This document shows, piece after piece, positions 15,855 through 49,736 of a DNA stretch of 64,000 bases. The translations under genes were made by a program, and so were the position numbers. Location: positions 45,845 through 109,844 of the forward strand of contig CAMAVU010000001.1 of NCBI GenBank assembly GCA_945861935.1, written 5' to 3'. How positions within the stretch are numbered: position 1 is the first letter of the stretch; each line of letters opens with the position of its first letter. The notes beneath the pieces were generated by a model, which saw nothing but the letters and a program-made list of their open reading frames with translations, searched no databases and had not been told where the DNA came from. This DNA comes from Bifidobacterium breve (GTDB lineage Bacteria > Actinomycetota > Thermoleophilia > Miltoncostaeales > Miltoncostaeaceae).

Positions 15855-17711
15855 CTAGTCGAGGACGTAGTCTGCGAGCGCCATCGCGATTTCGTGGGCG
15901 TCCGGCATCGCAACGGTCTGGTCGGATCTCACGATGAGGGAACCGTCAAGAACGAGGGCGTCGATGTCGGTGAGGAGGAAGCAGCGAACCGCATCGAATG
16001 CCGAGCACACGATCGGTTCTCCGCGGACGTTGAACGACGTGTTTACGAGGACGGAGCATCCGGTGCGAACACGGAAGGCCACAAGCACGTCATGGAGAAA
16101 CGGGTGGTGCGCCGAAGCCACTGTTTGGACCCGTGCGGAGTAGTCGATGTGCGTAACGGCGGGGATCACACTCCGGGTCTCGTTGATGCGCTCGAAGCCG
16201 AGGGGGCCGTCGCGGTCGGCCTCCTTGCCGTCTCCCATCCGTAGTGCCTGCTGGACTGGGAATGTCTTCAGCATGTAGGGCGAGCGGAGGCCCGGCGGCA
16301 TCTCGAAATATGTGCACGCGTCCTCTTCGAGCACGATGGGAGCGAACGGCCGGAAGCTCTCCCGGTACTTCGTCTTGAGGTTGAGTCGTTTCTGCGTATC
16401 GGGATTCCGGGGGTCAGCGAGGATGGACCGGTTACCGAGGGCCCGTGGTCCGAACTCCATTCGCCCACGTGCGATGCCGACGACACTTCCCGATGCCAGC
16501 AGGTCGGCAACGGCGTCGGGCAGCGGGGTGCCGCCGAGATCCCGCGTGATGAGTCCGGCGTCCGCGAGGGCGTTGGCCGAACCGGTGTCCACCTGTCCGG
16601 GCGCTGGACCGAGGAACGCCCCAGCCATCCCGTCCTCGCCGTCCACAGGACGGGGGGATCCGAACTCGTGGTGGTCGACCCAGAGGGCCGCACCGAGAGC
16701 GCCGCCCGCGTCGCCGGCAGCGGGCTGGATCCAGACGCCGGTGAAGGAGTCTGAGCGCTCGAGAGATCCCATTGCGACGACATTCAGCGCGACGCCACCA
16801 GCGAGGCACAGGTTTGATGAGCCCGCTGACGTACATGCTCGTCGGGCGAGTGCAAGCACGGCACGGTTGGTCACCGCCTGAATACTCGCCGCGATGTCGG
16901 CGTGGATCTGCATCAGCGGTGCCTCAGGCGACCGGGGATCGGTTTCAAGGAGGGTTGCGAGGCGATCGGTGTAGGTGTGCAGCCCGTGCAGGTATGCGAA
17001 GTACGCTGGGTTCAGGCTGAATGAACCGTCCGGATCGAGGTGAATGACCTCGTCGAGCAGCGCCCCCTGAAACCGTGGTGCGCCATACGGCGCCAACCCC
17101 ATCAACTTGTACTCCCCCGAATTGACCTTGAACCCGCAGAACATCGTGAGGGCGCTGTACAGGAGGCCCAGCGAGTTGGGGTACTCGATCTCCTCGATGA
17201 GTGTGATGTCCCTGCCCTGCCCGTGGCCGATGGAACATGTGCTCCACTCGCCCACACCGTCGATCGTGAGGATTGCGCTCTCATGAAACGGGCTGGGATA
17301 GAAGGCCGACGCGGCGTGCGAGAGATGGTGTTCACCGAGGTGCACGCGGACCCGGGAACCGAGTGCGTGCTGGATTGCCTTCTCCACGGGAAACTTCTCG
17401 GGCATGAACGCCTTCATGGCGACGACGAAGGCGCGAGCGGCCGACGCGTTGCCCGTCAGGTACGTGGACAACATCCGCTCCAGCTTCAGCATGGGGGAGT
17501 CGTAAAACGCGACGACCGCGAGGTCATCCGGCACGAGACCTTCCTGGCCGAGGACGTACTCCACCGCACGATGGGGGAATCCGGCGTCGCCCTTCTCCCG
17601 GGTGAAACGCTCCTCTTGGGCTGCAGCGAGGATGCGTCCGCCGCAGGTCAGAGCGGCCGCGCTGTCGTGGTAGAACGCCGACACGCCGAGGACGTAGCGC
17701 TCATCTGGCAT
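15855..17711 (-). CDS. NodU/CmcH-family carbamoyltransferase
   Basis: 618 aa with YVLGVSAFYHDSAAAL, EERFTREKGDAGFP and C-terminal VNTSFNVRGEPIVCSAFDAVRCF, all hallmark motifs of the family. Confidence 0.9.
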   Translation of the reverse strand: MPDERYVLGVSAFYHDSAAALTCGGRILAAAQEERFTREKGDAGFPHRAVEYVLGQEGLVPDDLAVVAFYDSPMLKLERMLSTYLTGNASAARAFVVAMKAFMPEKFPVEKAIQHALGSRVRVHLGEHHLSHAASAFYPSPFHESAILTIDGVGEWSTCSIGHGQGRDITLIEEIEYPNSLGLLYSALTMFCGFKVNSGEYKLMGLAPYGAPRFQGALLDEVIHLDPDGSFSLNPAYFAYLHGLHTYTDRLATLLETDPRSPEAPLMQIHADIAASIQAVTNRAVLALARRACTSAGSSNLCLAGGVALNVVAMGSLERSDSFTGVWIQPAAGDAGGALGAALWVDHHEFGSPRPVDGEDGMAGAFLGPAPGQVDTGSANALADAGLITRDLGGTPLPDAVADLLASGSVVGIARGRMEFGPRALGNRSILADPRNPDTQKRLNLKTKYRESFRPFAPIVLEEDACTYFEMPPGLRSPYMLKTFPVQQALRMGDGKEADRDGPLGFERINETRSVIPAVTHIDYSARVQTVASAHHPFLHDVLVAFRVRTGCSVLVNTSFNVRGEPIVCSAFDAVRCFLLTDIDALVLDGSLIVRSDQTVAMPDAHEIAMALADYVLD

Positions 17712-19254
17712 ACGTGGGCCTCAGGGTAATGGCGAACGGGATGAGATCGATCCTCTGGTTGACCGGACATCCTCTGGCCTGAGCAGCGGACCAGACGTAC
17801 ACGCCCGCGACGCGTACGCCCGGTGACATCGTGGGCACGATCGCGGTCCTCCCGGGTGCCACCCGAACCGCCGCGGACATGATCAGGGTCATGTCCGGGG
17901 TATACCCGAACGACGCCACCTCGACCGCCACGGCATCGGGGCCGACCTGGGCGCGGAGCCCCACGACATTCCTGCGCGCGGCATCAACGAGGTCGATCTC
18001 TGAGTGGGGGCGGCCGAGATCGGCACACGGAGCCGTCTGCCCGGGGAGCATGTGACCGGCGATGTTCAGCGTCGTCTCGATGACGGGGCGCCCTGACGGA
18101 TGCGCGGAGATGTCGGCTGCGCCGCCGCCCCGCTCGCTGATCTGCAGGTAGGTCGGAAGGAAGCCAGCCGTCAGCCGTCTCGTGTCCGGCGGGGTTTCGC
18201 CGCCGGCGGGAAGGATCTCCGCGGTCCGTGGGTCGGCGAGCAGGGTGTCGGCGGCATCTTCCGCCAGGCGATGTGCCAGTCGTGGGCTGGGGTGTGCGTT
18301 GACGGGGTTGATCATCAGCACGGATGGGTCTTCGAAGCGGACGAAGGGCGTCGTGCGCGGAATCGGGATGATCGTCGCGCCGCCGCCGCGCAGGATCTCA
18401 AGCGGTCGTCGGGCCAGTTCGAAGTCGCTCGGGCGGATCGGTGTGGGGAGAATGAACAGCGGCATCTGTTGGCCCACGGTCGTGCGCATGCGCGCGGCGG
18501 TCACGCGATACGCCGCCAGTGCATCCTCGGCGAGGATGCGGCGCAGGAAGTGGTAGAAGGGGTAGCCGACGGCGTCCGACGCGTTCGCCTCCCCGTCGGC
18601 GAGGCAGTAATTCGCGGTCATGCTCCGGGTGAGTGCGGGGAGCCACGCGGCTGTCTGGTGCATGAGTGTGGCGAACCACGATCCCTCGCCCTGCATGCAG
18701 GCGAGATACGGCTTGTCCTCCTCGTATTGCTTGATCCCGTAACACCAGTAGCCGAAACATGTGGCGCTGTCCTTGCGGCCCCGTGGCACCGAGTCGTTCG
18801 TCACGTAGCCGAAGACGACGGCATCGGGCCGGAGGCGGCCGAGCACTGCCGGCGTCAGCCAGTCGAGTTGGTTCATGGTCGCCGCCCCGTTGTTGGCAAG
18901 GGCTGTTACCTCGACGCGGCCGGCTCCAAGCCGATCATCCATCACGGTCTGCAGCGCGCGCGGCCACGCCGTTGCGGTATCGGTCGCGCCATCGCCCCAC
19001 ACGAACGAGTCCCCGACGACGAGGATCCGCAGTCGTCGCTCGCTCCCTTCCCCCGGAAGGATGTTCTCCTGCCGATTCACATGTGGATCACCGAGGCGCG
19101 GCGTCAACCGTGCGTAGTTGGAGGCGCTGATGAAACCATCCTCACGTGCCCACATGGCCCGGTCATCGAGAAGCTGGTCCGCACTCAGGGAAACCAGACC
19201 CACGATGGCCCATAGGCCGAGCGACCACATGACGATGATCGCGCGGCGCTTCAT
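17701..19254 (-). CDS. membrane-anchored SGNH/GDSL-family hydrolase or acyl-esterase with extra C-terminal domain
   Basis: An ATG at 19254 gives MKRRAIIVMWSLGLWAIVGLVSL (TM segment), then LRILVVGDSFVWGDG (GDS block I). The roughly 200-aa C-terminal region is unassigned. The stop overlaps the carbamoyltransferase start by 11 nt. Confidence 0.7.
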   Translation of the reverse strand: MKRRAIIVMWSLGLWAIVGLVSLSADQLLDDRAMWAREDGFISASNYARLTPRLGDPHVNRQENILPGEGSERRLRILVVGDSFVWGDGATDTATAWPRALQTVMDDRLGAGRVEVTALANNGAATMNQLDWLTPAVLGRLRPDAVVFGYVTNDSVPRGRKDSATCFGYWCYGIKQYEEDKPYLACMQGEGSWFATLMHQTAAWLPALTRSMTANYCLADGEANASDAVGYPFYHFLRRILAEDALAAYRVTAARMRTTVGQQMPLFILPTPIRPSDFELARRPLEILRGGGATIIPIPRTTPFVRFEDPSVLMINPVNAHPSPRLAHRLAEDAADTLLADPRTAEILPAGGETPPDTRRLTAGFLPTYLQISERGGGAADISAHPSGRPVIETTLNIAGHMLPGQTAPCADLGRPHSEIDLVDAARRNVVGLRAQVGPDAVAVEVASFGYTPDMTLIMSAAVRVAPGRTAIVPTMSPGVRVAGVYVWSAAQARGCPVNQRIDLIPFAITLRPTYAR

Positions 19255-19947
19255 GCCCGGCACCCCGACGTCGGTCCGGGGAGTTCGGAGGCCGGGAGAG
19301 CCTGCAGCCTGGCCAGCGAGGAGGAAGCGGTGGCTGTCCACGGCGGGATCACGGGTCGGATCGAGCGTACCGGCGGTCGCATCTCCGGGCAACCGTTACG
19401 GATCGCCGCGCTGGTCGCTACCGGCGCGGCATGAGTCCCCGGCATCTCGGAGGGTCTGTGCTCCGGGGGGCCGAGTCTGCATCCGGCGAGACGACGAGCC
19501 GTCAGCGTTCCCGCGGGGCATCACCCGGGACAACGGGGCTTCGGGTCCGTGTGCCGCGACGCCGCCTGTCAGCGACCGACCTCGGCTCCCAGGTTCCGGG
19601 AGATCCCCGGCACGACGGAGACATCGTGGCTCGCACCGTGCAGGATGGCGGATCGGGTGCTCGACCATTGCGATGCGGCGCACGGAACGGTCATGCCGCC
19701 CGCGTGGTCATCCGGAGTCGGCACGGGTAGGCCCGACGGATCAGTGCATGGCGGAAGAGATACGGTTCGCCCGGGGTCCGCGATGAGCCCCGGTGTCCGT
19801 GGCGGCCGGGTGCTCTGGCGACGCAGACCGTGCGTTGCACGCCGCCTCTTCCCGTACGCTCCCAAGGTGCGGCGGTCGCCTCAGGACGATTGCGGGAAGG
19901 GTGCGGTCGTCAATAGCGCTTGTTGACGCGGGGGAAGGGGTCGTCAC

Positions 19948-20907
19948 ATGGTCGGTCAATTCAGCGGGTACCTGAGTCCGGTCTTCCCGTCGCAGATCAC
20001 GGTGGACGTCACCGAGTACTGCAACCTGGCCTGCATCCATTGCCCCTACGAGACGGTCACCAAGCTCAAGGGGCGGGCGCGGCAGCATCTGTCCCCGCAG
20101 TGGCATACGAAGTTGATCGACGAGATCGTGAGCGACGGCCAGGGGCATTGCCGCTACGTCCGGTATACCGGGGACGGCGAGCCTCTTGCTCACCCGGGGC
20201 TGGCGGATCTGATCGCCTACGCCCACGACCGGTCCGGGATTCCGATCAACCTCACGACCAACGGGATGCTCCTCACGGAGGATCGGGCGGAAGCACTTCT
20301 GGACGCCGGGGTCGATGTCTTCGACATCAGCATCGATGCCAACACACAGGAGACCTATGCCCGCGTCCGGGTCAAGGGGAAGTTGGACATCACCCGTGCG
20401 AATGTCCTGCGGCTGATTGAAATGGTGCGCGAGCGGCCCGGTAGTGCCCGTGTGATGGTGAGCTTCGTGGAGCAGCCTCTCAACGCCCACGAAGCCGATG
20501 ACTTTCGCAACGACTGGCGGGCTGCCGGTGCTGACTTCGTGGTCGTACGGCGCCCCCATTCATGTGCGGGGTCGATCCCCGCGCAGGCAAAGGTTCTGTG
20601 GGACGCGGCGCCAGCGGAACGCCGTGCCTGTCTCTATCCATGGGAGCGGCTGACCCTGAAGGCCGATGGGTCACTGTCGTACTGCCCCACCGACTGGCGC
20701 CATGAGGCTGAGATCGGTCACATCGCTGCGACCACGGTCCGTGACGTCTGGCAGGGGCCCGGGATGGAGGCTGTACGGCTCGCTCACACGACGGGCGACT
20801 TCTCCGGACACGGGTTCTGCGGAAAGTGTCCGGACTGGTCTGTGGTCCGATGGCCATCAGAGGGTCGTAGCTACGCCTCGGTCATGCACGAGTTCTCTTC
20901 TGACTAG
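19948..20907 (+). CDS. radical SAM protein with SPASM-like C-terminal Cys cluster
   Basis: 319 aa with CNLACIHCPY (CxxxCxxC), GDGEPLAHP and TTNGMLL. C-terminal cysteines occur in CLYPWERLTLKADGSLSYCPTDW...CGKCPDW. GGAAGGGG lies upstream of the ATG. Confidence 0.85.
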   Translation: MVGQFSGYLSPVFPSQITVDVTEYCNLACIHCPYETVTKLKGRARQHLSPQWHTKLIDEIVSDGQGHCRYVRYTGDGEPLAHPGLADLIAYAHDRSGIPINLTTNGMLLTEDRAEALLDAGVDVFDISIDANTQETYARVRVKGKLDITRANVLRLIEMVRERPGSARVMVSFVEQPLNAHEADDFRNDWRAAGADFVVVRRPHSCAGSIPAQAKVLWDAAPAERRACLYPWERLTLKADGSLSYCPTDWRHEAEIGHIAATTVRDVWQGPGMEAVRLAHTTGDFSGHGFCGKCPDWSVVRWPSEGRSYASVMHEFSSD

Positions 20908-20920
20908 TCCCCCAACGGTC

Positions 20921-22069
20921 GTGTCCGGTCCCCACGTGCCGTTTTCACGGCCCTCATCGAGCGAGGAGGAGCACCGCCGCGTTCTGGCGGCGCTGCAGGA
21001 GGGGCATCTGCAGGGAGGTGGGCCATGGACGGATGTGTGCGAGGCGTGGTTGGAATCGTCAACACGCGCGGTGAAGGCGCTGCTGACAACGTCGGGGACA
21101 TCAGCTCTGGAACTGGCCGTCCTCCTGGCTGGCATCGGCCCGGGTGACGAGGTGATCATGCCCTCGTTCACATTTCCGTCAACTGCGAACTGCGTCGTGC
21201 TGCGTGGTGCAACGCCCGTGTTCGTTGACAGTGATGAAGGCACGATGAATATCGACCCGGTGCGCGTCCGCGCCGCTGTCACATCTCGCACCGCAGCCGT
21301 CATCCCCGTGCACTACGCGGGCACAGGGTGCGACATGGACGCCATCTGCGGGATAGCCCGAGATGCCGGCGCCATGGTGATCGAGGATGCAGCCCAAGCG
21401 GTCTGCGCCTCCTGGCAGGGGCGCTCCCTTGGGGCGATCGGCCAGTTGGGGGCCCTGAGCTTCCATGTGTCAAAGAACGTCAGTTGCGGGGAGGGCGGTG
21501 CCCTGTTGATCAACGAGCCCCGCTTGGTGGAAAGGGCTGAGATCCTGTGGGAGAAGGGGACTGATCGCAAGCGGTTCCTGCGCGGGGAGGTCGCGAAGTA
21601 TCGCTGGCGCGACGTCGGCTCATCGTTTCTGCCAAGCGAGGTATTGGCGGCCCTCCTGAGTGCTCAGATGGAGCGCGCGTGGGACATCACCCGGGCACGG
21701 GTGGGCCTATGGGATCGGTACCACGGCTCCCTGGCCCCTCTCGAGGATGCGGGGTTCCTGCGGCGCCCAACCGTTCCGGCCGGATGCCACCACAACGGCC
21801 ATATCTACTTCATCACTCTGCGGAGCACGGCCGTCCGCGAGATGGTCGTTGAGGAGATGCGCCGGGCATCCATCATGGTGCAGACGCATTATGTGCCACT
21901 CCACTCCGCGCCGGCCGGCCGTCGCTTCGGTCGTGCCCACGGGCCGATGGATGTGGTCGACTCCGTGGCACCCCGACTGCTTCGCCTGCCGTTGTTCCCG
22001 GATATGACTCCAGAACAGCACGCGGTTGTTGTCGGCGTCCTGCAGCGGGTGGCGGGGATGGGTGGGTGA
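20921..22069 (+). CDS. DegT/DnrJ/EryC1-family sugar aminotransferase, WecE-like (dTDP-4-amino-4,6-dideoxyhexose transaminase type)
   Basis: The track ORF starts at 20666 inside the radical SAM gene. Homology starts at VPFSRPSSSEEEH (candidate GTG starts at 20921 or 20936). Long colinear similarity to E. coli WecE: FHVSKN (PLP Lys), WEKGTDRKRFLRGEVAKYRWRDVGSSFLPSE, HNGHIYFI, HYVPLHSAPAG, LLRLPLF. Confidence 0.85.
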   Translation: MSGPHVPFSRPSSSEEEHRRVLAALQEGHLQGGGPWTDVCEAWLESSTRAVKALLTTSGTSALELAVLLAGIGPGDEVIMPSFTFPSTANCVVLRGATPVFVDSDEGTMNIDPVRVRAAVTSRTAAVIPVHYAGTGCDMDAICGIARDAGAMVIEDAAQAVCASWQGRSLGAIGQLGALSFHVSKNVSCGEGGALLINEPRLVERAEILWEKGTDRKRFLRGEVAKYRWRDVGSSFLPSEVLAALLSAQMERAWDITRARVGLWDRYHGSLAPLEDAGFLRRPTVPAGCHHNGHIYFITLRSTAVREMVVEEMRRASIMVQTHYVPLHSAPAGRRFGRAHGPMDVVDSVAPRLLRLPLFPDMTPEQHAVVVGVLQRVAGMGG

Positions 22070-22302
22070 GCATTCCCGCCGGTCGGCGCGAGCCGCGGGT
22101 CGGTCGCGGCATCAGGCGGGTCCCCCTCGTTGGGCCCCGGTCTCTTATTGGCGGCGTCCCCGGACCCGGGAATCGGGGGATCGGCTCGCGAGGACGCACC
22201 AGGGGGGATCGGTATCGCTGCGGCGATCATCGCCGGTGTGCGCTCACACCGTGGGCCAACCACGCGGCACTCGCCCTCCGGGGGGATCCGGGTTGACCAC
22301 GG

Positions 22303-23028
22303 GTGGCTGACACTTCGTCGAGCGAAGCCCGGTGCGTCGCAGTCATCCAGTCCAACTACCTCCCTTGGAGGGGGTACTTCGACATCATGGATGACGCGGA
22401 TCTCTTCATCCTCCATGACGATCTTCAGTACACGAAGCAGGACTGGAGGAACAGGAACAGAATCAAGACTCCTGCCGGTCTCGAGTGGCTGACGGTCCCC
22501 GTTTCTCACCGTGCCACGCGGCAACTCATCCAGGAGACGGAGATCGCCGCCGGTGACTGGCCTGTGAGGCACCGCAGGAAGATCACCGAGGCCTATCGCG
22601 CCGCGCCGTACTTCTCGGAGGTGTTCCCTCTCATCGAGAAGGCCCTGAGCGCACCTTCGGGTCTGCTGTCGGATCTCAACGCTCACCTACTTCGATCGAT
22701 CGCCGACTTCCTGGGAATCACGACGCCGATCGTATGGTCACGGGACTATCAATCGGCGGGGGTGCGCAATGAGAAGTTGGTGTCCCTGCTGGTATCCGCG
22801 GGGGCAACGCGCTACATCAGTGGGCCGAGTGCACGCGCCTACATCGATGAGGCCCTGTTTGAGGCCGCAGGCATCCCGGTTTTATTCAAGGAGTACTCGT
22901 ACGCGCCGTACGAGCAGTTATGGGGGCCGTTCGCCGGCGAGGTTTCGGTGATTGATCTGCTGTTCAACATGGGGCCGGCGAGCCGAGGCCTCATCAAGAG
23001 CCGCGTTCCGCTGCCCTTCGGTCTATGA
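22303..23028 (+). CDS. WbqC-family protein
   Basis: 241 aa with AVIQSNYLPWRGYF, QDWRNRNRIKT and EWLTVPV, typical of WbqC-like proteins. GTG start. Visibly lower GC than its surroundings. Its stop overlaps the convergent downstream gene's stop (CTATGA). Confidence 0.75.
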   Translation: MADTSSSEARCVAVIQSNYLPWRGYFDIMDDADLFILHDDLQYTKQDWRNRNRIKTPAGLEWLTVPVSHRATRQLIQETEIAAGDWPVRHRRKITEAYRAAPYFSEVFPLIEKALSAPSGLLSDLNAHLLRSIADFLGITTPIVWSRDYQSAGVRNEKLVSLLVSAGATRYISGPSARAYIDEALFEAAGIPVLFKEYSYAPYEQLWGPFAGEVSVIDLLFNMGPASRGLIKSRVPLPFGL

Positions 23029-24234
23029 CGTGTCCCGGGTCCGCACAGGCACCCGTTCCAGAACTACGCGCGCAGCGACCCGGGGATCGAAGTTCCGGAG
23101 CGCAGCCCGGTTCCCCTCCTCCGCGAGTGCCGGGAGGAGGTGGGGATGGGCGCTCGCCCACGAGAGCGCTTGTGCGACGTCGGCCGCTGTCTCGCAGTGA
23201 AGGCCCGGAAGGGCCGTCCCGTACCACGCGGAATACACATCGGGCCGCAGGTTGCCGAGGACGACGCGACGTCGCAACATCGAATCCATCGCAATGCCAG
23301 CCGGGCCGATCGGTGACAGGGCATCGCAGACGATGTGCTGGTCCTCGATAACGGATACGTAATGCTCGTAGGACAGTTCCGGCACCCACTCGACCCATCG
23401 GCCGATGCCCTGCGATGTGACGTACTGTTGGACCCGGGCGGGATCCAGCCCCTTGGTGGTCACGGTCAGCCGGGCGTCACCGCCTGAGAGAACGAACCGG
23501 CGAAAGCCCTCGAGCAGGATGTCGGTGCCCTTGCGGTCGGTGAAGGATTGGGCGGAATCGGCATCTCGGACTCCAATGCGCGCCAGACAGGCGATGCGCA
23601 GCGGAGCATCAGTGGGCATCGGTCGTGAGGCACGGGAACAGAAGGTGTTCCCGAGGCGCAGGGCGAGGCGTTGGGATGGCATGACACCGAGCCCCTGAAA
23701 CAAGATCTCGGCGTCCGGCCGAAGGCCCGGCGGGTCGTGGATGATCAACTCCGCCGAGGCGATGCCGTGCCGCTGCCGGGCCACGAGATGGCTCCATGCG
23801 AGCCGGTGGTCGAGCGCCTCGCGCGAGCGCCGGAAGTCGCCGCTCCATCCCGCCTCACGCAGATGAATCGAGTCGTAGTTCGCGTAGTAGGTGAGATCCG
23901 ATCCCGTGAGGTGCGCGACATGTGGGACGGACAGGAGGTCCGCGATGGAGGGCCCCTGGTCGTTGAGGAACACGAGGTCTGCCCACTCGTTGATGTCGGC
24001 AACCAGATCCCGCAGGCGCGGGCTGCGATCCACGAAGTCGCTGTCCGCGAGGCTGGCATCGGGGGGCCAGGTGACCTCGGCCGTGTGCGTATCCACGAGC
24101 GCCCGGAGGGATGAGGGCTGGTGGAGCGCTTCGGGGCGGGTTGGGACCAGACGGCACTCATGTCCGGATTCGGCAAACCCCAATGCCAGAAGATGCGGTG
24201 CGTTGTTGACGTTGCCGACGAACGCGATGCGCAT
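23023..24234 (-). CDS. putative glycosyltransferase (GT-B fold, GT1/GT4-like, divergent)
   Basis: An ATG at 24234 gives MRIAFVGNVNNAPHLLALGFAESGHE (Rossmann-type GT-B N-terminus). The second half is Rossmann-like, with TDRKGTDILLEGF. The 188 aa upstream in the track ORF are Arg/Pro-rich and judged non-coding. Confidence 0.5.
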   Translation of the reverse strand: MRIAFVGNVNNAPHLLALGFAESGHECRLVPTRPEALHQPSSLRALVDTHTAEVTWPPDASLADSDFVDRSPRLRDLVADINEWADLVFLNDQGPSIADLLSVPHVAHLTGSDLTYYANYDSIHLREAGWSGDFRRSREALDHRLAWSHLVARQRHGIASAELIIHDPPGLRPDAEILFQGLGVMPSQRLALRLGNTFCSRASRPMPTDAPLRIACLARIGVRDADSAQSFTDRKGTDILLEGFRRFVLSGGDARLTVTTKGLDPARVQQYVTSQGIGRWVEWVPELSYEHYVSVIEDQHIVCDALSPIGPAGIAMDSMLRRRVVLGNLRPDVYSAWYGTALPGLHCETAADVAQALSWASAHPHLLPALAEEGNRAALRNFDPRVAARVVLERVPVRTRDTS

Positions 24235-25172
24235 CACGTCCTCCCCGGCCCGGTAAGCCCATGCGCGAGCACATGGTATGTCCCGCCGGGGGTTCTGGCG
24301 ACTCCGACACGCTCCGTTGTCCGATGGCGAACGCGAATCCGCGCATGCGCGTCGGGGCGAAGGGGGCGGTCCCCCCGCCGGGTGCCGGTCCCGATTCGTT
24401 GCCCGGCGAGGTCTGCTGGGCCGACTGGCCCAGTGGGATCGTCCCAATCCATGCTGCGCGGGGCATGCTCTGGGCAGTACGCGACGAGGTCGTCCTGATG
24501 AGGGTACGCCCGGTATGGGGATGCGCCCGGCCTCCGTGGAGCGATCCACGGGGAGGAGGCAGTACTCATCCGGTGACGTCCCGCCCGGGATGCCCATGGC
24601 TGCCACGAAGGCCTGGACGTCGCAGGTACGGGCTGGATGGAATGATGCCGCGCGTGCCTGCGACGGGGGAATCAGGCACGCGGGCTGTACGGGAGGGTTG
24701 CCGTCCCGGGTGCCGGTAGCCGGGCGACAGGCGGAAGGGCCCCGCCCCGCCGCCCCTCGCTGCAGTTGGCACCGTCGATGACGCCCACCGGCACACACGA
24801 CGCGCGCGGCCGGTCACTCGACCAGAGCGGTTGCGCGGTGGCGCGCCCGCGCCCGGCGTTTCCGGGTTGGCGTGGAACCGGCCGGTGGTTGCCAACGTTC
24901 CACGATTCCGATCGGGGGAGTGCACGGGTGCCGGACGCCGGAGGGAGTGCGGACGCGAGGTGTGCCCCTGGGATCTCCGCCCGCTGCAGGCCTGCTGGCG
25001 TCCCGTGATCCGCTGCAGCCCGCGAGTGGGTCCACAGGGACGCGGGTCGGGTGCCCGGGAGCCGTGGCGTGCAAATCGGCACCCGTCCCGCCGACCTCGG
25101 TGTCCCGACTGATGGTCTATGAGGCTCCCCCGCCCCGATGTGTCGGTTCCAGGCGCCAACCACGCCGGTCCG

Positions 25173-27638
25173 TCATCGTCCCGATCCGCTGGCACGCGGG
25201 CGGAGGGTGATCCCCAGCGTCACGACGGAGAGGTCCGCTGCCGAGTGGTCGCGGAATCGCGGGTTCATCTCGGCAATCTGGCCGGTCGTGACGGACGGCG
25301 TGACCTCATCCCAGGAAGTCACTTGCCGCATCTCCGGTCCGACGCCGATGAGGAATGTGATTTCGGGATCGAAACCGGCATCCGCGGCGAGGCGGAGGTG
25401 GTCAGACGCACGCAGGCGATTCTCAGTGTTGATCAGCGCGTAGTCCTCGTCGGATGTGTAGAGGAAGCGAAGGGGTTCGGCTGTGTGGAGGTGGTCACGG
25501 AGGTCAATGCAGTGGAAGGCCACTGCGTCAGGACGCATCATGCGGTGCATGGCCGCGTACACGGCCTCGGGGTGCATCACATGTTCAAGCACCGAATTGG
25601 AGCACACGAAGTCCACGGAGCCGGGGCTGATGTTCATCGCCTCAAATGCTTCGTCGCCCCGCACGTCGAGGCCCTCGAACAGCACATCGTCGTGGGTTCC
25701 CTGACGGAGGTGGGGCGTCAGCGCAGCGACCAGGTGCGGCTCGGTGGCGCTCACGACAGACAGGAAGGGCGCCATCACGGAGTTCGGCATCCGGTGATCA
25801 ACACTCAGCAGGTCGTTGGCGATGACATGCTCGAACCCCTCGGCGAGTAGGCGGATGGCGGCCCAAGGGCGTTGACCGCATCCCAGAACGACGGCACGTG
25901 ACCCGCGACCGGCACGCTCGCGGGCATGTGTGAGCCACGGGAGGGCTTGCAGGAAGAAGTTGTTGAAGACGGTGTTGTTCGTGTGAGTGCTGGCGACGAA
26001 ACGTGAAAGGAGCGCCTCGTCTGTACCGGCGAGCCAATCGCCGTAGCCCCGGAGGAGGGCGTCAAGGAGCGCCGGCTCGGGGATCTCAACGGTGTACTCA
26101 CGGCCGTTGGTCCGGCAGTCCGAGCCGTCGGTGGATGAGAACATGACCCGGTCGCCCCATAGACAGAAGCGCCCGTGCCCGAGGGTGCGCACCTCTTCGT
26201 GCTGTGCATTCGGGGTGGTGAGGGGTACGCCGTCTTCGAACACCACGGTGCATGGCACGATACGGGGGTCCGCCAGAAGCCCCTTCGCCGCGGCCACCGG
26301 GAGAGGCGCGAGAACCGCGTATCCATTTTCGGAGATGAAGGGCCGGGAGAGCGACACCGTGCCCCACGCGGACACAACGGTAGGCGTATCGGTGACCACG
26401 AGTGCATACGTGCGCCCATTGGATCGGCAGTCCGTACCATCCGATGCGGCGAAGTAGATGTCGTCACCCCAGATGCTGAATCCGTTGCCATGTTCGCGGA
26501 TGGCAGCGTGAGGTACGTCGGCAAGGGAGAGCGCGACGCCGTTCTCTGTGACGTACGCCGTGTGTTGCGCTCCGTCATCAAGAAGTGTGCGCGCGACCGG
26601 CGGAAGGGACGTCCGGTAACTGAGTCCACCGTCCGGGATCAGTACCCCGTCGAGCGGGAAGGCATCCCCGACTGGCGGGGCTGATTGCTGTGGTTCGCGT
26701 CGGCGGCCACCGACGGTCGTCAACGCGCCGTTGTATTCCCGGCGCACTGCGCGGAGCGGTCGTGTGATGCGCCATGACGCCGACGAGGTCACGAGCGCGA
26801 GACCGGCGGTGGCGTCACGCTCCCGGGCCTCACTTTCGACGGCGATGCGTCGCGCGAGGTTCCGCTCGTGTGTCATCTGTTCCGTGGCACGCTGGAGGTC
26901 CGCGATCCGCTCGACAAGATCGCCTACGACATCGCTGGGCGCATCCTCGGCAGGGGTCGGTGTCGGCAGTGCTCGTCGGGTGTGCACCGGCCACTCATGA
27001 AGGTGACTTGTGCGGTTGTCGAGCCCCAGAAGGAGAGGATGTGCCTCGTGGGCGCGAAGGGCAAGGGGGAGCGTCAGCTGATCCCGTTGCGAGTACCGCA
27101 GGACGAGTGTCCACCATGTCTCCATCGCCCGAATGACGTCGGGGTGATGATGATGCCGGAGAATCATCCCGCCCCAGTACACGTCTCCGTTCAGGGCGGC
27201 GCTATCAACCGTGCGGACCATCGTGAGGTAGTCGGCCAGCACCGCAGGGGATTCCATGTGGAGGCGCGCGATCGCCTCTGCCTCGTCTCGCAGCGTGCCA
27301 TGGAACGAGTGCGTGTTGAGGGCAAGGCACGCCTCCGGGTTCGCGATGAACGCATTCAGCATGGCGTCGGGCGGGCACCGCAGGAGGACGCTGTTGTCGA
27401 TGTAGAGGGAGGTCTGGTACTCGGGCAGGTAGCGGTGCGGGAGGATCTTCGGGTGTCGTGAACTGCGACGGGTATCTGCCGGCAGGATCTTCTCGGTCAC
27501 CACCACGCGCCACGTAGCCGACGAGAGCGCGGAGTCGTCGGTGAAGCAGATGAAGTCGGTGCCCGATTGGTTCGCAACCTCCTGCTCGACGAGGGTCTCA
27601 TAGCCGCCGAAGAGACACGTGTAGACGCATGCACCCAT
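25173..27638 (-). CDS. multidomain protein: DUF616 (TOD1/MUCI70-like) glycosyltransferase, coiled coil, two novel tandem repeats, class I SAM methyltransferase
   Basis: The ATG at 27638 forms an ATGA overlap with the upstream epimerase stop. The DUF616 domain carries the motifs CLFGGYE, TDFICFTDD and RRSSRHPKILPH. A coiled coil (LVERIADLQRATEQMTHERNLARRIAVESEARE) is followed by SASWRITRPLR. Two roughly 57-aa repeats come next, and the C-terminal methyltransferase fold carries VVLGCGQRPW...FVCSNSVLEHV. Confidence 0.7.
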   Translation of the reverse strand: MGACVYTCLFGGYETLVEQEVANQSGTDFICFTDDSALSSATWRVVVTEKILPADTRRSSRHPKILPHRYLPEYQTSLYIDNSVLLRCPPDAMLNAFIANPEACLALNTHSFHGTLRDEAEAIARLHMESPAVLADYLTMVRTVDSAALNGDVYWGGMILRHHHHPDVIRAMETWWTLVLRYSQRDQLTLPLALRAHEAHPLLLGLDNRTSHLHEWPVHTRRALPTPTPAEDAPSDVVGDLVERIADLQRATEQMTHERNLARRIAVESEARERDATAGLALVTSSASWRITRPLRAVRREYNGALTTVGGRRREPQQSAPPVGDAFPLDGVLIPDGGLSYRTSLPPVARTLLDDGAQHTAYVTENGVALSLADVPHAAIREHGNGFSIWGDDIYFAASDGTDCRSNGRTYALVVTDTPTVVSAWGTVSLSRPFISENGYAVLAPLPVAAAKGLLADPRIVPCTVVFEDGVPLTTPNAQHEEVRTLGHGRFCLWGDRVMFSSTDGSDCRTNGREYTVEIPEPALLDALLRGYGDWLAGTDEALLSRFVASTHTNNTVFNNFFLQALPWLTHARERAGRGSRAVVLGCGQRPWAAIRLLAEGFEHVIANDLLSVDHRMPNSVMAPFLSVVSATEPHLVAALTPHLRQGTHDDVLFEGLDVRGDEAFEAMNISPGSVDFVCSNSVLEHVMHPEAVYAAMHRMMRPDAVAFHCIDLRDHLHTAEPLRFLYTSDEDYALINTENRLRASDHLRLAADAGFDPEITFLIGVGPEMRQVTSWDEVTPSVTTGQIAEMNPRFRDHSAADLSVVTLGITLRPRASGSGR
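26079..26564 (-). repeat. intragenic tandem duplication encoding two roughly 57-aa modules
   Basis: Copy 1 (26391-26564): AYVTENGVALSLADVPHAAIREHGNGFSIWGDDIYFAASDGTDCRSNGRTYALVV. Copy 2 (26079-26255): CTVVFEDGVPLTTPNAQHEEVRTLGHGRFCLWGDRVMFSSTDGSDCRTNGREYTVEI. Shared pattern: E-[DN]-G-V-x-L...H...[IV]R..G.G.F..WGD...F..[ST]DG[ST]DCR[ST]NGR.Y. Confidence 0.6.
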
Positions 27639-28591
27639 CAGACCGAAACGGGCTCGCGGGATCGATGCCATGCGACCTGCTCGATGATGCCCTCGCGGAG
27701 TGGTATGCGCGGCTCCCAACCGAGCATCGCACGGGCCTGTGTCGTGTCGGCACCGGTGCGTCTGACATCACCCGGCTGATCCCCACCCGGCTCGATGATG
27801 ATCGGCCTCCCCACCACCTCCTCGATGAGGCCGATCAGTTCCCGCATGCTCACGATGCTCCCGCCGCCGAGGTTGAGGACGGAGCCCGGAGCGATGTCCG
27901 CGGCAGCGGCGAGCACATTGGCCTCCACGATGTCATCGACGAACGTGAAATCGCGTTCTTGCGACCCATCGCCGTTGAGGATGAATGAGCCGCGGCCGAG
28001 GGCACACTCGATCAGCCTGTAGGTGGCCATATCCGGGCGCTGCCGCGGGCCATACACGGTGAAGTAGCGAAGTGACACCGTGCTCAGCGAGTGATTCGCC
28101 GCGTAAAGGTTGACGAGGTGCTCGCCCGCCAGCTTGGTGACCCCGTACGGGCTCCGCGGCACGGGCAGCGACTTCTCGGTGAACGGGAAGTCGTCACTGT
28201 CCCCGTACACGGAGGAACTGGAGGCGTAGACGAAGCGCTGAACACCGGCCCGGATGGCCGCCTCAAGCAGGATCTGAGTGGCCAGAATGTTGTCCCGGAC
28301 ATAGACCGCGAAGCCTCCGCCCCAACTGGCCCGGACGCCAGGCTGCCCAGCCTGGTGGAAGACGGCGTCCGCGCCCTCGATGAGCGCAGGGAGATCGGCA
28401 GTCAGGAGATCCTCGATACGGACGCGGACCCCCGCTTCCTCGATCGTGCGGACCGATCGCCTCTTGATGTCCGGGTCGTAGTAGTCCGAGAGTCGGTCAA
28501 TGCATATGACATCCCACCCCTCGTCGCGCAGCCGTTGCGCGAGTGTGCTGCCGATGAAGCCCGCACCTCCTGTCACCACGGCCTTCGGCAC
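27638..28591 (-). CDS. NAD-dependent nucleotide-sugar epimerase/dehydratase (extended SDR; possibly UDP-uronate 4-epimerase-like)
   Basis: 317 aa with VVTGGAGFIGS, the catalytic YGVTK (YxxxK) and FTVYGPRQRPDMA. GTG start at 28591. Confidence 0.85.
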   Translation of the reverse strand: MPKAVVTGGAGFIGSTLAQRLRDEGWDVICIDRLSDYYDPDIKRRSVRTIEEAGVRVRIEDLLTADLPALIEGADAVFHQAGQPGVRASWGGGFAVYVRDNILATQILLEAAIRAGVQRFVYASSSSVYGDSDDFPFTEKSLPVPRSPYGVTKLAGEHLVNLYAANHSLSTVSLRYFTVYGPRQRPDMATYRLIECALGRGSFILNGDGSQERDFTFVDDIVEANVLAAAADIAPGSVLNLGGGSIVSMRELIGLIEEVVGRPIIIEPGGDQPGDVRRTGADTTQARAMLGWEPRIPLREGIIEQVAWHRSREPVSV

Positions 28592-33781: not shown

Positions 33782-34555
33782 TCAGCCGTGGACGGCAGCG
33801 GTGCTCTCCCGGTCGCGCTTCGACAGGGTGAACAGCAGGTGCAGATGCGTCCAGCGGAGGCGGGGTCCGAGGCGCTGCTCAAGCCGCAGCATGCGCGAGA
33901 GCACCCATCCCGGAATGGGCGTCCGGGAGAACACGCCACCGGACAGCACATACGACGGACCGGTCAGCGACGGGCCCTCCTCGACGAGGAAGTTGGGGAA
34001 GCTCTGCTCGAAGGCGGCGCGGTCGCGGCGGAGCAGGATGTATGCCAGTGCCTGATTGGAGTCCCAGCGCTCGTCTGTGGATCCTCCCCACGCAGCAGCG
34101 CCCTCGTCGTATGGCTCCGGATGAAGGTGCCGGAAGACGAAGCGGGCGAGAGGGCTCCAGTACGGCTCGATACATGCGACACACCCGCCGGGTGCAAGGA
34201 CTCGATCGGCCTCGGCCATGAACGCCGGCACGTCAGGGATGTGGTGCAGAACATCCTTCATGATGATGGCCCGTATCGCTCCGTCGCCGAAGGGGAGGAC
34301 CTCGGCGCGGCACGTGATATCGACTGTGGGGTCGTCAATCACATCGGTGACGAGCACCCTGGGATCGAGGTCGTGCACCATCCCCGGGGCCCCACCGATC
34401 TCCACCACGGTCCCCGTGGTGGAGATCGGTGTACGGGCGACCTGGTCGAGAAGTCGCGAGTACATATCGTGGTACACGGACGAGAGATACGGATCACAGA
34501 CGATTGCGCGCCGGATGGCCTGGGGAGGGGAATCGCGGTCCACTCGCTCACGCAT
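33782..34555 (-). CDS. class I SAM-dependent methyltransferase
   Basis: 257 aa with VVEIGGAPG (motif I), LPFGDGAIRAIIMKDVLHH and LAPGGCVACIEP. Confidence 0.75.
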   Translation of the reverse strand: MRERVDRDSPPQAIRRAIVCDPYLSSVYHDMYSRLLDQVARTPISTTGTVVEIGGAPGMVHDLDPRVLVTDVIDDPTVDITCRAEVLPFGDGAIRAIIMKDVLHHIPDVPAFMAEADRVLAPGGCVACIEPYWSPLARFVFRHLHPEPYDEGAAAWGGSTDERWDSNQALAYILLRRDRAAFEQSFPNFLVEEGPSLTGPSYVLSGGVFSRTPIPGWVLSRMLRLEQRLGPRLRWTHLHLLFTLSKRDRESTAAVHG

Positions 34556-42383: not shown

Positions 42384-43745
42384 TCACGCTGACCGGCCCC
42401 ACCGCCAGACGGTCTTACCCGGGGACACATTGTCGTGGGCATCGGCAGTGGGCAGGACAGACCAGGCCACCGGGACCGCCAGAACCCCATCACCTGGCCA
42501 AGTCCGCTCCATGAAGAGCGGGACCGACTCAGGCCACTGATCCAGTCGGGCCCCGGTTGTGAGGTCACGGATGATCGCATTGACGTTGAGCCATCCCTCT
42601 TGAATCGGCAGGGAAAACGCGATCGCGCACGTGAAACCGCCTCTCTCCTGAGGGAGGGCCCCGGCCATGTCGGAGGAGTGCGTCTCCAGAATGGTCTGGC
42701 GGAGTGAGTCGGTGACGGTGATCTCCATGCTGAGCACGGCGATTGGGTCGTTCGTCTCAACCTCCACTTCCACCACGACCGTTGCACCCGCCGGAAGCCG
42801 CCTCTGGGCGTCAGGATCGGGTGGATCGGTGATCTGCATTCGCTTGATCGTGGCCGAGGGCTCCACCGGCAGTGTGCCCGGGTCGGGGGTGAAGCGGATG
42901 GGGGGTTCCCCGCCCTCCTCCTCGTGGTGATATTCGGGGTCGGCTACGGATGCCGGGGGTGACCAGACCGTGTCTGGAACATCGGCTCCGATTCCACCCT
43001 CCCGGTCCTCGAGCAACTGCTCATAGATAGGGAGCACCTCATCCGGGGAGCCGTCCACGACCACTCGGCCGCCGTCGATCAGGACGGCACGCGAGCATAT
43101 GGTGCGGACCGCGTTCTGATCGTGCGACACAAAGGCAAGGGTCCCACCGTGATCGAGGAAGTGATGGATCCTGTCCATGCACTTCGCCTGGAAGGCGGCG
43201 TCGCCGACGGTGAGGACCTCGTCGAGAAGGAGGATGTCAGGGTTGACGTGGGCGGCCACGGCGAACGCCAGGCGCATCTGCATGCCGCTGGAGTAGGTGC
43301 GCACAGGCATGTCAATGAAATCGGCGAGCTCCGCGAAGTCGATGATCTTCTGGAGGCGCGCTGACACATCCCGGTGGCGCAGGCCGTGGAGCGCCCCGTT
43401 CATAAAGACGTTCTCCCTGCCGGTGAAGTCCGGGTGGAAGCCCGATCCGAGTTCCAGCATGGCGGCGATCGACCCACCGGCTTCGACCGAGCCCGCGTGG
43501 GGCGGGAGAATGCCCGCGAGCACTTTGAGCAAGGTGCTCTTGCCCGCTCCGTTGCGGCCGATGAACGCGACGGCCTCGCCGGAGCGGATGTCGAGGGTGA
43601 CATCGCGCAGTGCCCACAACTCGGAGTAGGCGACGCGCCGCCTGCGCACGATCGTCTCCTTGAGCGTCAGACTGCGCTCGTGGACGATCCGGAAGCGGCG
43701 GGAGACGTGGTGCAACCGCACCTGCCCGCGCACGAGGTTACTCAC
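42384..43745 (-). CDS. wzt: polysaccharide ABC exporter ATP-binding protein (Wzt/TagH type) with C-terminal extension
   Basis: The GTG at 43745 forms a GTGA overlap with the wzm stop. Walker A GRNGAGKST, signature YSSGMQMRLAF and Walker B ILLLDE are present. Residues about 251-453 form an acidic linker plus a beta-rich domain. The track ORF upstream part (to 44435) is antisense or out of frame to wzm. Confidence 0.9.
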   Translation of the reverse strand: MSNLVRGQVRLHHVSRRFRIVHERSLTLKETIVRRRRVAYSELWALRDVTLDIRSGEAVAFIGRNGAGKSTLLKVLAGILPPHAGSVEAGGSIAAMLELGSGFHPDFTGRENVFMNGALHGLRHRDVSARLQKIIDFAELADFIDMPVRTYSSGMQMRLAFAVAAHVNPDILLLDEVLTVGDAAFQAKCMDRIHHFLDHGGTLAFVSHDQNAVRTICSRAVLIDGGRVVVDGSPDEVLPIYEQLLEDREGGIGADVPDTVWSPPASVADPEYHHEEEGGEPPIRFTPDPGTLPVEPSATIKRMQITDPPDPDAQRRLPAGATVVVEVEVETNDPIAVLSMEITVTDSLRQTILETHSSDMAGALPQERGGFTCAIAFSLPIQEGWLNVNAIIRDLTTGARLDQWPESVPLFMERTWPGDGVLAVPVAWSVLPTADAHDNVSPGKTVWRWGRSA

Positions 43746-44545
43746 AACTCGACTGCCATCTCGCGCTCGAGGCGTGCGAATACCTGCCATCCGATGATCA
43801 CCATGGCGATGCTCGCCAGAATGACGTAGAGCGCATCGGCCAGCGGGGGCCAGGTTCCGAAGAAGAGCGTGTCCTGAATACAGATCACGAGGGGCGCGAT
43901 GGGGTTGCCCCAGTGGAGGATGCCGATGAGCACCTCGTGCTCGCGCGCCGCGTCGGGCAGCGTGGAGTACGTGTAGAAGATCGGGGTCAGAAAGAACCAC
44001 GGGACGCCGAGGGCGGCGATGATGTGCTCGACGTCCCGGAAGTACACATTGACCGCTGCGAGAACCAACCCCAGACCGATGGTGAACACGAACGCCACGA
44101 TGAGGAGCGCCGGTAGGGCGATCAGCGGTGCGTAGGAACCCTCCTGCAGCCAGATGCACAGGGGAAGGGCGATGAGCAACATTGCCGCTGCGATGACCGC
44201 ATTGGCGGTGATCGCAGCGGCTGGGATGATCACCCGCGGGAACCGTACTTTCGTGACCAGCGACGCGTTGCTGATGATGCTCTGTGCGCCGACCGACATG
44301 CCCCCGAAGACGAGAGTCCAGACCATGAGGCCGACGAAGAGGAAGAGCGCGTAGTTCTGGATCGGTGACCCGAATAGGAACTTGAACACGACCCAATACG
44401 CCGCGACCACGAGAAGCGGGTTGATGAGCGTCCACGCGAGACCGAGTGCGGAAGCCTTGTAGCGCTGGCGAACCTCGCGTCGTACGAGATTCCGAAACAG
44501 CGGCGCGTATGCCAGTAGGGGGCGAAGCGAGTCCACTGTCCGCAC
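43742..44545 (-). CDS. wzm: polysaccharide ABC exporter permease (Wzm, ABC-2 type)
   Basis: LLAYAPLFRNLVRREVRQRYKASALGLAWTLINPLL is the canonical Wzm/TagG N-terminal motif, with 6 TM segments. The GTG at 44545 sits 1 nt after the upstream stop (TAG, 44547-44549). The track ATG at 44605 would overlap by 59 nt. Confidence 0.85.
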   Translation of the reverse strand: MRTVDSLRPLLAYAPLFRNLVRREVRQRYKASALGLAWTLINPLLVVAAYWVVFKFLFGSPIQNYALFLFVGLMVWTLVFGGMSVGAQSIISNASLVTKVRFPRVIIPAAAITANAVIAAAMLLIALPLCIWLQEGSYAPLIALPALLIVAFVFTIGLGLVLAAVNVYFRDVEHIIAALGVPWFFLTPIFYTYSTLPDAAREHEVLIGILHWGNPIAPLVICIQDTLFFGTWPPLADALYVILASIAMVIIGWQVFARLEREMAVEL

Positions 44546-44546
44546 T

Positions 44547-45053
44547 CTATTGGACGGTCGCCCCCGCTGCGATCGCGGCCTCGATCGCAGCGTCCACGAC
44601 GGCACCTACGCCGTCGTCGAACCCGGTGGCCGGGTCGATCCCCAGGGTTTGTGCGAGCGCAGGCGCTGTCCCGAGGACGCGCCGTACGGTGAAACGGTCG
44701 AGCGGGGAGGGGGGAGCGAGGACCCCGTCGCCCCCCGGCCCCCCGGCCATCACCGCAATCGGCGGGGCGAAGGGTGCGATGGCGGCGGCCTCGGCCGGAT
44801 CGATCACCACGACGGCGTCCGAGGAGGTGATCTGTGTCCGGCTGATGGCATCCACATGACGTACGCCCACGAGCGGGATCAGGACCCGGGGTCGCGGGTC
44901 GCCATGGTGGATCAGCATGGGATCACCCACGCCAATCAAAAACGATGCGCAGGGCAGCCCGGATCGTGAGTGGTCCGTCAGGCGCTCGCAGAGTGCGAGC
45001 GCGAAGGCCGCGGTGCCGCCCGCAGCGTCGCGTCCGCAGCGTATGACGCTCAT
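44547..45053 (-). CDS. hypothetical protein (168 aa) embedded between GT4 and wzm
   Basis: The ATG at 45053 forms an ATGA overlap with the upstream GT4 stop. Sequence begins MSVIRCGRDAAGGTAAFALALCERL... No recognisable motif. Ala/Gly/Pro-rich but in the operon frame. The 260-aa track version has an Arg-rich extension. Confidence 0.45.
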   Translation of the reverse strand: MSVIRCGRDAAGGTAAFALALCERLTDHSRSGLPCASFLIGVGDPMLIHHGDPRPRVLIPLVGVRHVDAISRTQITSSDAVVVIDPAEAAAIAPFAPPIAVMAGGPGGDGVLAPPSPLDRFTVRRVLGTAPALAQTLGIDPATGFDDGVGAVVDAAIEAAIAAGATVQ

Positions 45054-47711: not shown

Positions 47712-47817
47712 GGTCTCCCGCTTGTTGGTTCCTCAGCGCGACCGACGCGGGAGCATCCGTGAGTGGACTTGCACGTCCGTCGCCGCCCAACCTCCGGTAA
47801 GGGTAGCGTGCAGACCC

Positions 47818-49736
<1,919 letters not shown>

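Follow-up and report, generated by a model that had tools for sequence, protein, structure and literature searches.

A glycan gene cluster of about 33 kb, lower in G+C than its flanks, lies in the 64,000-nucleotide stretch examined here (hereafter the window; contig CAMAVU010000001.1 of assembly GCA_945861935.1, filed as Bifidobacterium breve and assigned by GTDB to the Miltoncostaeaceae). On its minus strand, the cluster carries a gene for a protein of 821 amino acids (the target), in which a DUF616 glycosyltransferase (GT)-like domain, a helix of about 42 residues, the motif SASWRITRPLR, a linker, two tandem modules, a helical linker and a class I S-adenosylmethionine (SAM)-dependent methyltransferase follow one another (Table 1). 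The positions that an earlier, sequence-only reading of this DNA had given for its four elements, including the helix followed by the motif, were all correct. The target is a rare fusion of two widespread, evolutionarily independent units, and a plausible if tentative role for it is that of a bifunctional chain-end capping enzyme of a Wzm/Wzt glycan pathway.

The uninterrupted open reading frame (ORF) spans 25173..27719 of the minus strand. The ATG at 27638 overlaps the TGA stop codon of the upstream epimerase gene (tgATG) and yields 821 residues, and an alternative ATG at 27671, 33 nt upstream, was chosen by public gene callers and yields 832 residues (P0001). An identical gene is present on four independent public contigs, indicating that it is no assembly artefact, and its G+C content at third codon positions (GC3) of 0.76 is of the coding type. 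No transmembrane-like segment was found in the 821-aa protein (maximum 19-residue hydropathy, 1.27). In a word-indexed homology search, the full protein matched nothing but itself and two DUF616 proteins. When 1.84 billion representative proteins were scanned exhaustively with HMMER, 7,724 matches were obtained, among which the target itself was the only one of full length, and the remaining matches fell into two classes, namely DUF616 proteins and proteins combining one or two modules with a methyltransferase. A PDB sequence search with the whole protein gave no match at E <= 1 except an unrelated tail fibre. The full-length AlphaFold model, built from an 8-sequence alignment, had a mean predicted local distance difference test score (pLDDT) of 49.9 and was used only for the methyltransferase region and for secondary structure.

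Table 1. Coordinates of the target gene, its parts and its main neighbors in the window (residue numbers refer to the 821-aa protein)
Feature	Position	Strand	Basis or remark
Whole ORF, 821 aa	25173..27638	-	start is ATG at 27638
DUF616 / TOD1_MUCI70 glycosyltransferase-like domain, residues 1-~228	26955..27638	-	Pfam PF04765 and family alignments
Coiled-coil candidate helix, residues 236-~283	26790..26933	-	AlphaFold helix and heptad pattern
Motif SASWRITRPLR, residues 286-296	26751..26783	-	regular-expression match, the only one in the window
Gly/Pro/Arg/Gln-rich linker, residues 297-328	26655..26750	-	low complexity, pLDDT <50
Module 1, small beta-rich domain, residues ~329-424	26367..26654	-	un-annotated family
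Module 2, same family, residues ~430-527	26058..26351	-	closer to consensus (GHGRFCLWG...FSSTDGSDCRTNGREY)
Helical linker, residues 528-575	25914..26057	-	conserved jointly with the methyltransferase across the module-methyltransferase family
Class I SAM-dependent methyltransferase, residues 576-~814	25197..25913	-	Pfam, model, Foldseek
NAD-dependent epimerase, upstream, translationally coupled	27638..28591	-	closest to UDP-glucuronate 4-epimerases
Asparagine-synthase-like amidotransferase + TviE-like GT4 fusion, 1,218 aa	28679..32335	+	
Second, stand-alone class I methyltransferase	33782..34555	-	
Wzt, nucleotide-binding domain + ~200-aa C-terminal domain	42384..43760	-	
Wzm, ABC-2 type permease	43742..44605	-	ABC2_membrane

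The first unit begins with the DUF616 domain, which matches PF04765 (TOD1_MUCI70) over residues 40-193 with 54.7 bits against a cut-off of 21.4 (E 1.3e-14) and carries the motifs CVYTCLFGGYE, FTDD, YIDNS, RDQLTLP and HEWP; in the AlphaFold model, pLDDT is below 50 over most of the domain. DUF616 relatives align by the hundred to residues 3-~228, the closest being from Actinomycetota, and many are stand-alone proteins of 290-350 aa. DUF616 proteins make up about 124 of the 150 best representatives, aligning from residue 3 to ~220-300 and in many cases through the helix and the motif. In the target, a Pro-rich linker (residues 229-235) precedes a charged, Pro-free segment (residues 236-283), of which residues 236-277 form a single AlphaFold helix of low pLDDT (~42 residues, ~6 nm) with a modest heptad signal (a/d occupancy 0.62-0.75), and the basic residues AVRRE come right after SASWRITRPLR. 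No other protein in the window has this combination of coiled coil and motif. The general form of the motif, S-x-S-W-R-x-T-x-P-[LIVMF]-R, is present in 44 of the 148 top representatives checked, and an alignment of 39 sequences shows no variation at W, T, P and R. Short DUF616 proteins have the motif 6-42 residues ahead of the C-terminus, with a basic tail after it. Between the GT core (RDQLS) and the motif lie 77-167 residues (median 107.5, one outlier at 271), so that the helical spacer measures ~35-125 residues across the family, and relatives hold clearly coiled-coil-like sequence of up to ~125 residues at the position of the target helix. Judged from these alignments, the helix and motif belong to the DUF616 unit as its C-terminal tail and are no spacer between two catalytic domains.

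The same tail of coiled coil, motif and basic residues is shared by glycan enzymes of different kinds, and in some cases two proteins from a single locus carry it (motif coordinates L005:2794-2817 and L012:19825-19848; representatives in the range P0134-P0274). A 1,283-aa protein in L005 has the order Methyltransf_24, coiled coil, SSTSWRVTKPIR, GT4, GT2 and Methyltransf_11, and L012 encodes a GT4 whose C-terminus consists of a coiled coil and SLSWRITAPLR. The DUF616 unit itself, with coiled coil and motif, is fused downstream to unrelated FkbM methyltransferases (P0249, P0269, P0197). Further downstream fusions of DUF616 units are to PhyH plus cupin (motif confirmed in P0164), to a TupA-like ATP-grasp domain (motif confirmed in P0208) and to a WsaF-type GT, in which case the motif was not detected. 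A profile of the coiled coil and motif gave only chance matches in the PDB, from which the C-terminal parts of WbdD and WbbB are absent. A docking or oligomerization role is suspected for the motif tail. No functional study of bacterial DUF616 (PF04765) proteins and no characterized bacterial member was found in the literature searched.

The second unit consists of the two modules and the methyltransferase. Modules 1 and 2 represent a tandem duplication with 34% identity across 94 columns (pairwise E 3e-16) and have no Pfam match. A profile of seven module copies retrieved 624 proteins, a family that both target modules match and that includes P0006-P0126 and L042:7001-7420, with a signature of approximately EDG-x-PLGPAH ... 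G-x-GRFSHW ... FSSSD(N/G)-x-DP-x-TNGR-x-YW. Among the matches listed, nearly all are 96-182 aa long and without a Pfam domain, and 79 of 118 module proteins examined have a hydrophobic helix at the N-terminus and one module after it. A confident model of the two-module region (mean pLDDT 87.8, 123-sequence alignment) shows small, beta-rich folds with two short helices each. Foldseek of this model against the PDB gave no match at E <= 0.001 (best E 0.03, TM-score <= 0.27), so the module is left without assignment to carbohydrate-binding module (CBM), immunoglobulin (Ig) or fibronectin type III folds, and hhalign revealed no relationship between the module and the Wzt C-terminal domain. The module is also found at the C-terminus of a radical SAM/SPASM enzyme adjoining a module-methyltransferase gene (L128:1993-3444) and, in many copies, in large proteins, among which P0147 appears to start with a signal peptide and P0156 has DUF4838. 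In Methyloterricola oryzae, a module gene lies between an amidotransferase-GT4 gene and a methyltransferase gene. Three long contigs had suggested that the module always adjoins a methyltransferase, and this was rejected, as only 3 of 104 nearest-neighbor ORFs around 80 metagenome loci (one sub-clade, crude ORF calling) were methyltransferases. We infer that the module is an accessory domain for substrate binding or targeting.

The C-terminal domain passes the Pfam cut-offs for Methyltransf_23 (residues 576-756, 32.0 bits against 27) and Methyltransf_11 (residues 665-706, 26.2 bits against 21.2), and contains motif I (VLGCGQRP), an acidic post-I residue within IANDL and, further on, SNSVLEHV. 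Its model has pLDDT values of 66-88 over residues 560-715, and Foldseek returned 556 matches at E <= 0.001, the best 50 being SAM-dependent methyltransferase-fold proteins throughout. The DUF616 domain, the tandem modules and the class I methyltransferase had been named correctly by the sequence-only reading. One or two modules joined to this same methyltransferase subfamily form a family of ~21 representatives of 390-520 aa, which align to residues 324/423-814 of the target, the one-module forms to residues ~423-813. Residues 324-814 align to P0005 (E 5e-144), P0130 (6e-123) and P0131 (6e-97), and P0132 also belongs to the family. At a separate locus (L127:2-2108), the methyltransferase subfamily is represented by a tandem pair of paralogues, of which the upstream one is cut by the contig end, and the adjoining GT4 shares 49% identity with the GT4 half of the amidotransferase-GT4 protein in the window.

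Fusion of the two units is not confined to the window. A fused relative of 864 aa (P0129, GCA_039747255.1) occurs in a second lineage that is 47-50% identical to the target over the compared parts, and in GCA_039746435.1 the corresponding sequence is divided into two genes, encoding 338 aa and 519 aa, with an ATGA overlap that makes them translationally coupled. The split point falls in the low-complexity linker just after the motif, and the fused relative is at least 90% identical to the split form. The pair (L001:8985-11560 and L045:10001-12595) differs by an indel in the linker, representing a natural fusion/split polymorphism, from which it follows that covalent, rigid spacing of the two halves seems dispensable. 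Both loci are syntenic with the window, sharing the methyltransferase, GT2, amidotransferase-GT4, epimerase, target and PfkB genes, and the catalytic-type motifs of the DUF616 and methyltransferase domains are conserved between the target and its relatives.

The epimerase gene to which the target is coupled has UDP-glucuronic acid (UDP-GlcA) 4-epimerases as its best PDB matches (6zl6 and MoeE5 6kv9, E ~5e-67), and the epimerase + DUF616 gene pair is kept in L001, L045 and four Microbacterium loci examined. By this resemblance the DUF616 domain probably receives its donor sugar from the epimerase, and the likely donor is UDP-galacturonic acid (UDP-GalA). Plant TOD1 and MUCI70 belong to the same Pfam family as the N-terminal domain of the target; however, they reside in the Golgi or in membranes and lack the coiled coil and motif tail, the modules and the methyltransferase. 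MUCI70 is linked to the synthesis of pectin, which contains galacturonic acid (GalA), and this link fits the adjacent UDP-GlcA 4-epimerase-like gene.

In addition, the genes for Wzm and Wzt lie in the same window, and Wzt has the C-terminal extension of ~200 aa that the sequence-only reading had pointed out; its nucleotide-binding domain resembles A. aeolicus Wzt (E 2.7e-68). Among 37 genome loci with a DUF616 + coiled-coil gene, 12 have wzm and wzt within 3 kb upstream of it, these 12 being from Microbacteriaceae and one Moraniibacteriota. Wzt carries an extension of 150-183 aa in 11 of the 12 linked loci, and the Wzt_C cut-off was passed by 7 of the 8 linked Wzt proteins tested (Microbacterium at 35.8-63.2 bits). 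In four of five loci examined, a homologue of the window epimerase is the sole gene between wzt and the DUF616 + coiled-coil gene. The Microbacterium loci L011, L013, L014, L017, L019, L021 and L036 (~6.8-11 kb) have the order wzm, wzt with a genuine Wzt_C, (epimerase), DUF616 + coiled coil, and a methyltransferase related to that of the target was not detected within 10 kb there; the DUF616 + coiled-coil protein itself could be the terminator in these loci. In E. coli O9a, wbdD sits in the same slot after wzt. The wsaE gene of Geobacillus stearothermophilus directly follows wzm-wzt (PMC2943079), and DUF616 + coiled-coil genes near wzm/wzt occupy this wsaE slot.

In characterized ATP-binding cassette (ABC) transporter-dependent systems, the terminator is part of a coiled-coil protein, and Wzt recognizes the cap through a carbohydrate-binding module (PMC11231755), in agreement with the O9a-type logic that the sequence-only reading had applied to this locus. 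Like the target, WbdD (E. coli O9a/O8; K. pneumoniae O3/O5) contains a methyltransferase and a helical or coiled-coil region, after which comes a short C-terminal element, and it serves a Wzm/Wzt pathway whose Wzt has a C-terminal domain (PMC3482155, PMC11231755). However, no sequence relationship between the two was detectable, in line with the non-homologous analogue that had been proposed: the target had no PDB sequence match to WbdD, and WbdD was not among the best 50 structural matches. The kinase domain of WbdD is absent from the target (Pfam), and the target helix belongs to a GT unit and precedes the methyltransferase, whereas WbdD has no GT domain. ORF6 of K. pneumoniae O7, with the order methyltransferase, kinase, Ig-like CBM (predicted), coiled coil, GT2 and GT2 (PMC11231755), likewise unites a methyltransferase, an adjoining non-catalytic beta-rich domain, a coiled coil and GT modules in one polypeptide, and its orthologues occur with or without the GT part (PMC11231755). 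In architecture, the target too has its candidate terminating domain and its GT on opposite sides of the helix (GT 1-228, helix 236-283, methyltransferase 576-814); in contrast to ORF6, the domain order is reversed, the GT is DUF616 and not GT2, there is no kinase, and the module has no Ig or CBM match.

In WbbB (K. pneumoniae O12) and ORF7 of K. pneumoniae O4 (GT137), a terminating glycosyltransferase is attached to a coiled coil, and the arrangement of O4 ORF7 as GT, (tetratricopeptide repeat), C-terminal coiled coil resembles the stand-alone proteins with DUF616, coiled coil and motif. Both enzymes depend on CMP-Kdo and belong to other folds or families, whereas DUF616 is GT-A-like, with UDP-GalA as its putative donor and a hypothesized terminating role. 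WsaE of the G. stearothermophilus S-layer glycan is, like the target, a methyltransferase fused to glycosyltransferase domains, and the 2-O-methyl cap that it produces is believed to be recognized by Wzt (PMC2943079). Unlike the target, WsaE has rhamnosyltransferase domains and an N-terminal methyltransferase, and the review PMC2943079 describes no coiled-coil ruler for it.

The domains, families, gene neighborhoods and fused and split variants observed here would be best accommodated, though at somewhat less than even odds, by a mechanism in which the donor sugar, the action at the chain end and the role in chain length are all putative. The target would be a soluble or peripheral cytoplasmic protein. 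Its first unit (residues 1-~300) would act as a GT-A-like glycosyltransferase whose tail may oligomerize the enzyme or dock it at the membrane or an assembly complex, and in its second unit (residues ~329-821) the modules may bind the glycan or a lipid-linked acceptor for the methyltransferase. The coupled epimerase would supply UDP-GalA, the DUF616 domain would add GalA at the non-reducing end of the growing chain, and the tethered methyltransferase would then methylate this GalA or a neighboring residue. The resulting cap would stop elongation and be recognized by the C-terminal domain of Wzt for export. Support for capping comes from the DUF616 + coiled-coil genes that adjoin wzm and a Wzt_C-bearing wzt in Microbacteriaceae, and from the independent fusions of DUF616, coiled coil and motif to FkbM methyltransferases. 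Either domain could be the terminator, and the methyl group may or may not be terminal.

Several observations weigh against capping. The Wzt_C match of the window Wzt (24.5 bits) is below the cut-off of 30.4, no Wzm/Wzt was present within the 10 kb fetched around the loci of the close relatives, and one of the DUF616 + coiled-coil fusions (P0164) sits outside any glycan locus. The stand-alone second methyltransferase of the window, which has a homologue alongside the target counterpart in L045 (tblastn) and a methyltransferase counterpart at the same position in L001, could be an alternative or additional capper, as could the carbamoyltransferase of the cluster, and the methyltransferase of the target could methylate every repeat unit. 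The putative GalA donor is suggested only by a neighboring gene and by the proposed role of plant MUCI70. In addition, module-methyltransferase and single-module genes are also found in Wzx/MurJ-type flippase loci (L043, L044), where capping is not expected, and this distribution also counts in favor of in-chain decoration. In that case, the DUF616 domain would add a main-chain or branch uronic acid in each repeat unit, the methyltransferase would methylate this residue or its neighbor, and the fusion would only improve coupling between the two steps, leaving the protein without any part in termination or chain length. In the window, L001, L045 and L042, the module-methyltransferase unit travels with the amidotransferase and TviE-like GT4 fusion (in L127, with its GT4 half only), which suggests that the unit may modify the product of that enzyme; the amidotransferase-GT4 fusion, 1,606 aa long in Methyloterricola oryzae, suggests an amidated uronic-acid polymer. 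Several methyltransferases per locus (five in L042) and the occurrence of the module on a radical SAM enzyme, which makes it look like a general substrate-delivery domain, are also consistent with decoration. However, DUF616 + coiled-coil genes are tightly linked to Wzt_C-bearing wzt genes, such systems use terminal caps (PMC11231755), and a coiled-coil tail would be unusual on a plain decorating enzyme. We regard in-chain decoration as a serious rival, somewhat less probable than capping.

The sequence-only reading had also proposed a molecular ruler. In the form considered here, which resembles WbdD or O7 ORF6, the DUF616 domain would be part of the polymerase, the methyltransferase the terminator and the coiled coil a rigid ruler that allows only chains of a minimum length to be capped. 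The terminator proposal is plausible. The ruler proposal is weak, given the shortness of the helix, the disorder of the linker behind it and the existence of the two halves as separate genes in a relative. The succession of GT, helix, (possible carbohydrate-binding modules) and methyltransferase resembles that of O7 ORF6 read backwards (PMC11231755), and the variable spacer between the GT and the motif is what a tunable ruler might show; the L005 protein running from Methyltransf_24 to Methyltransf_11 uses the same motif. However, the target helix of ~42 residues compares with a coiled-coil region of ~250 residues in WbdD (residues 460-708; PMC3482155), and its heptad signal in a home-made scan was indistinguishable from that of ordinary helices in neighboring proteins. 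The ~30-residue low-complexity linker after the motif would leave the methyltransferase flexibly tethered, the division into two genes in GCA_039746435.1 is hard to reconcile with a fixed distance, and most family members stop after the helix and motif, leaving nothing beyond to be spaced apart. A rigid ruler is thus quite improbable. An incidental or decaying fusion, in which the halves act independently or one is inactive and the architecture has no mechanistic meaning, is very improbable: the single full-length match among the 1.84 billion representatives, the existence of a split form and the atypical methyltransferase motif I (LGCGQRP) would fit it, but two lineages with only 47-50% identity over the compared parts both retain the fused form, the ORF is uninterrupted and has a GC3 of 0.76, the relatives share the catalytic-type motifs of both domains, and fusion to FkbM methyltransferases has arisen convergently.

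As for the rest of the cluster, one flank consists of nuo genes, PstS, a malic-enzyme-like gene and PfkB, and the far side is not clearly delimited. The cluster also holds one GT2, several GT4s, a GMC oxidoreductase and Gmd; the GDP-mannose 4,6-dehydratase and an adjacent short-chain dehydrogenase/reductase enzyme (47710-49736, plus strand) suggest that the same glycan contains a sugar of the GDP-6-deoxyhexose type. A block of ~8-9 kb (15855-24234), situated between the target and PfkB, encodes a carbamoyltransferase, a GDSL-like protein, a radical SAM/SPASM protein, a WecE-like aminotransferase, WbqC and a 403-aa protein without a family match, and it looks like an inserted decoration module because it is absent from the syntenic L001 and L045 loci. 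The ~940 bp directly downstream of the target (24235-25172) contain no convincing ORF, public gene callers disagree on them, and Rfam, promoter and terminator scans of this interval gave no matches.

Beyond the target itself, DUF616 proteins with the coiled coil and motif may constitute a widespread, unrecognized family of capping (probably GalA) transferases for ABC-transporter-dependent glycans, in which the motif tail would be a shared docking or oligomerization element that assembles the enzymes of a locus, and the module a new domain that binds the glycan end and brings methyltransferases and radical SAM enzymes to it. Bacterial relatives of plant MUCI70 would thereby receive a biochemical role for the first time. 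This is a speculative extension that we consider unlikely as a whole. If the target only decorates repeat units, it would be a tidy fusion of gene neighbors and of modest interest. Termination and length control in ABC-transporter-dependent glycans are known from a few enterobacterial enzymes and one Geobacillus enzyme, and chain-end capping by the target, if true, would add a new terminator architecture from a high-GC lineage that is apparently uncultured. It would also give bacterial DUF616, a family shared with plant MUCI70/TOD1, a testable function and a testable donor sugar. Two widespread elements that lack annotation, the 95-residue module and the coiled coil with its S-x-S-W-R-x-T-x-P-L-R tail, are exposed by this analysis, and both would then be possible genomic markers of capped-glycan pathways and handles for glycoengineering.

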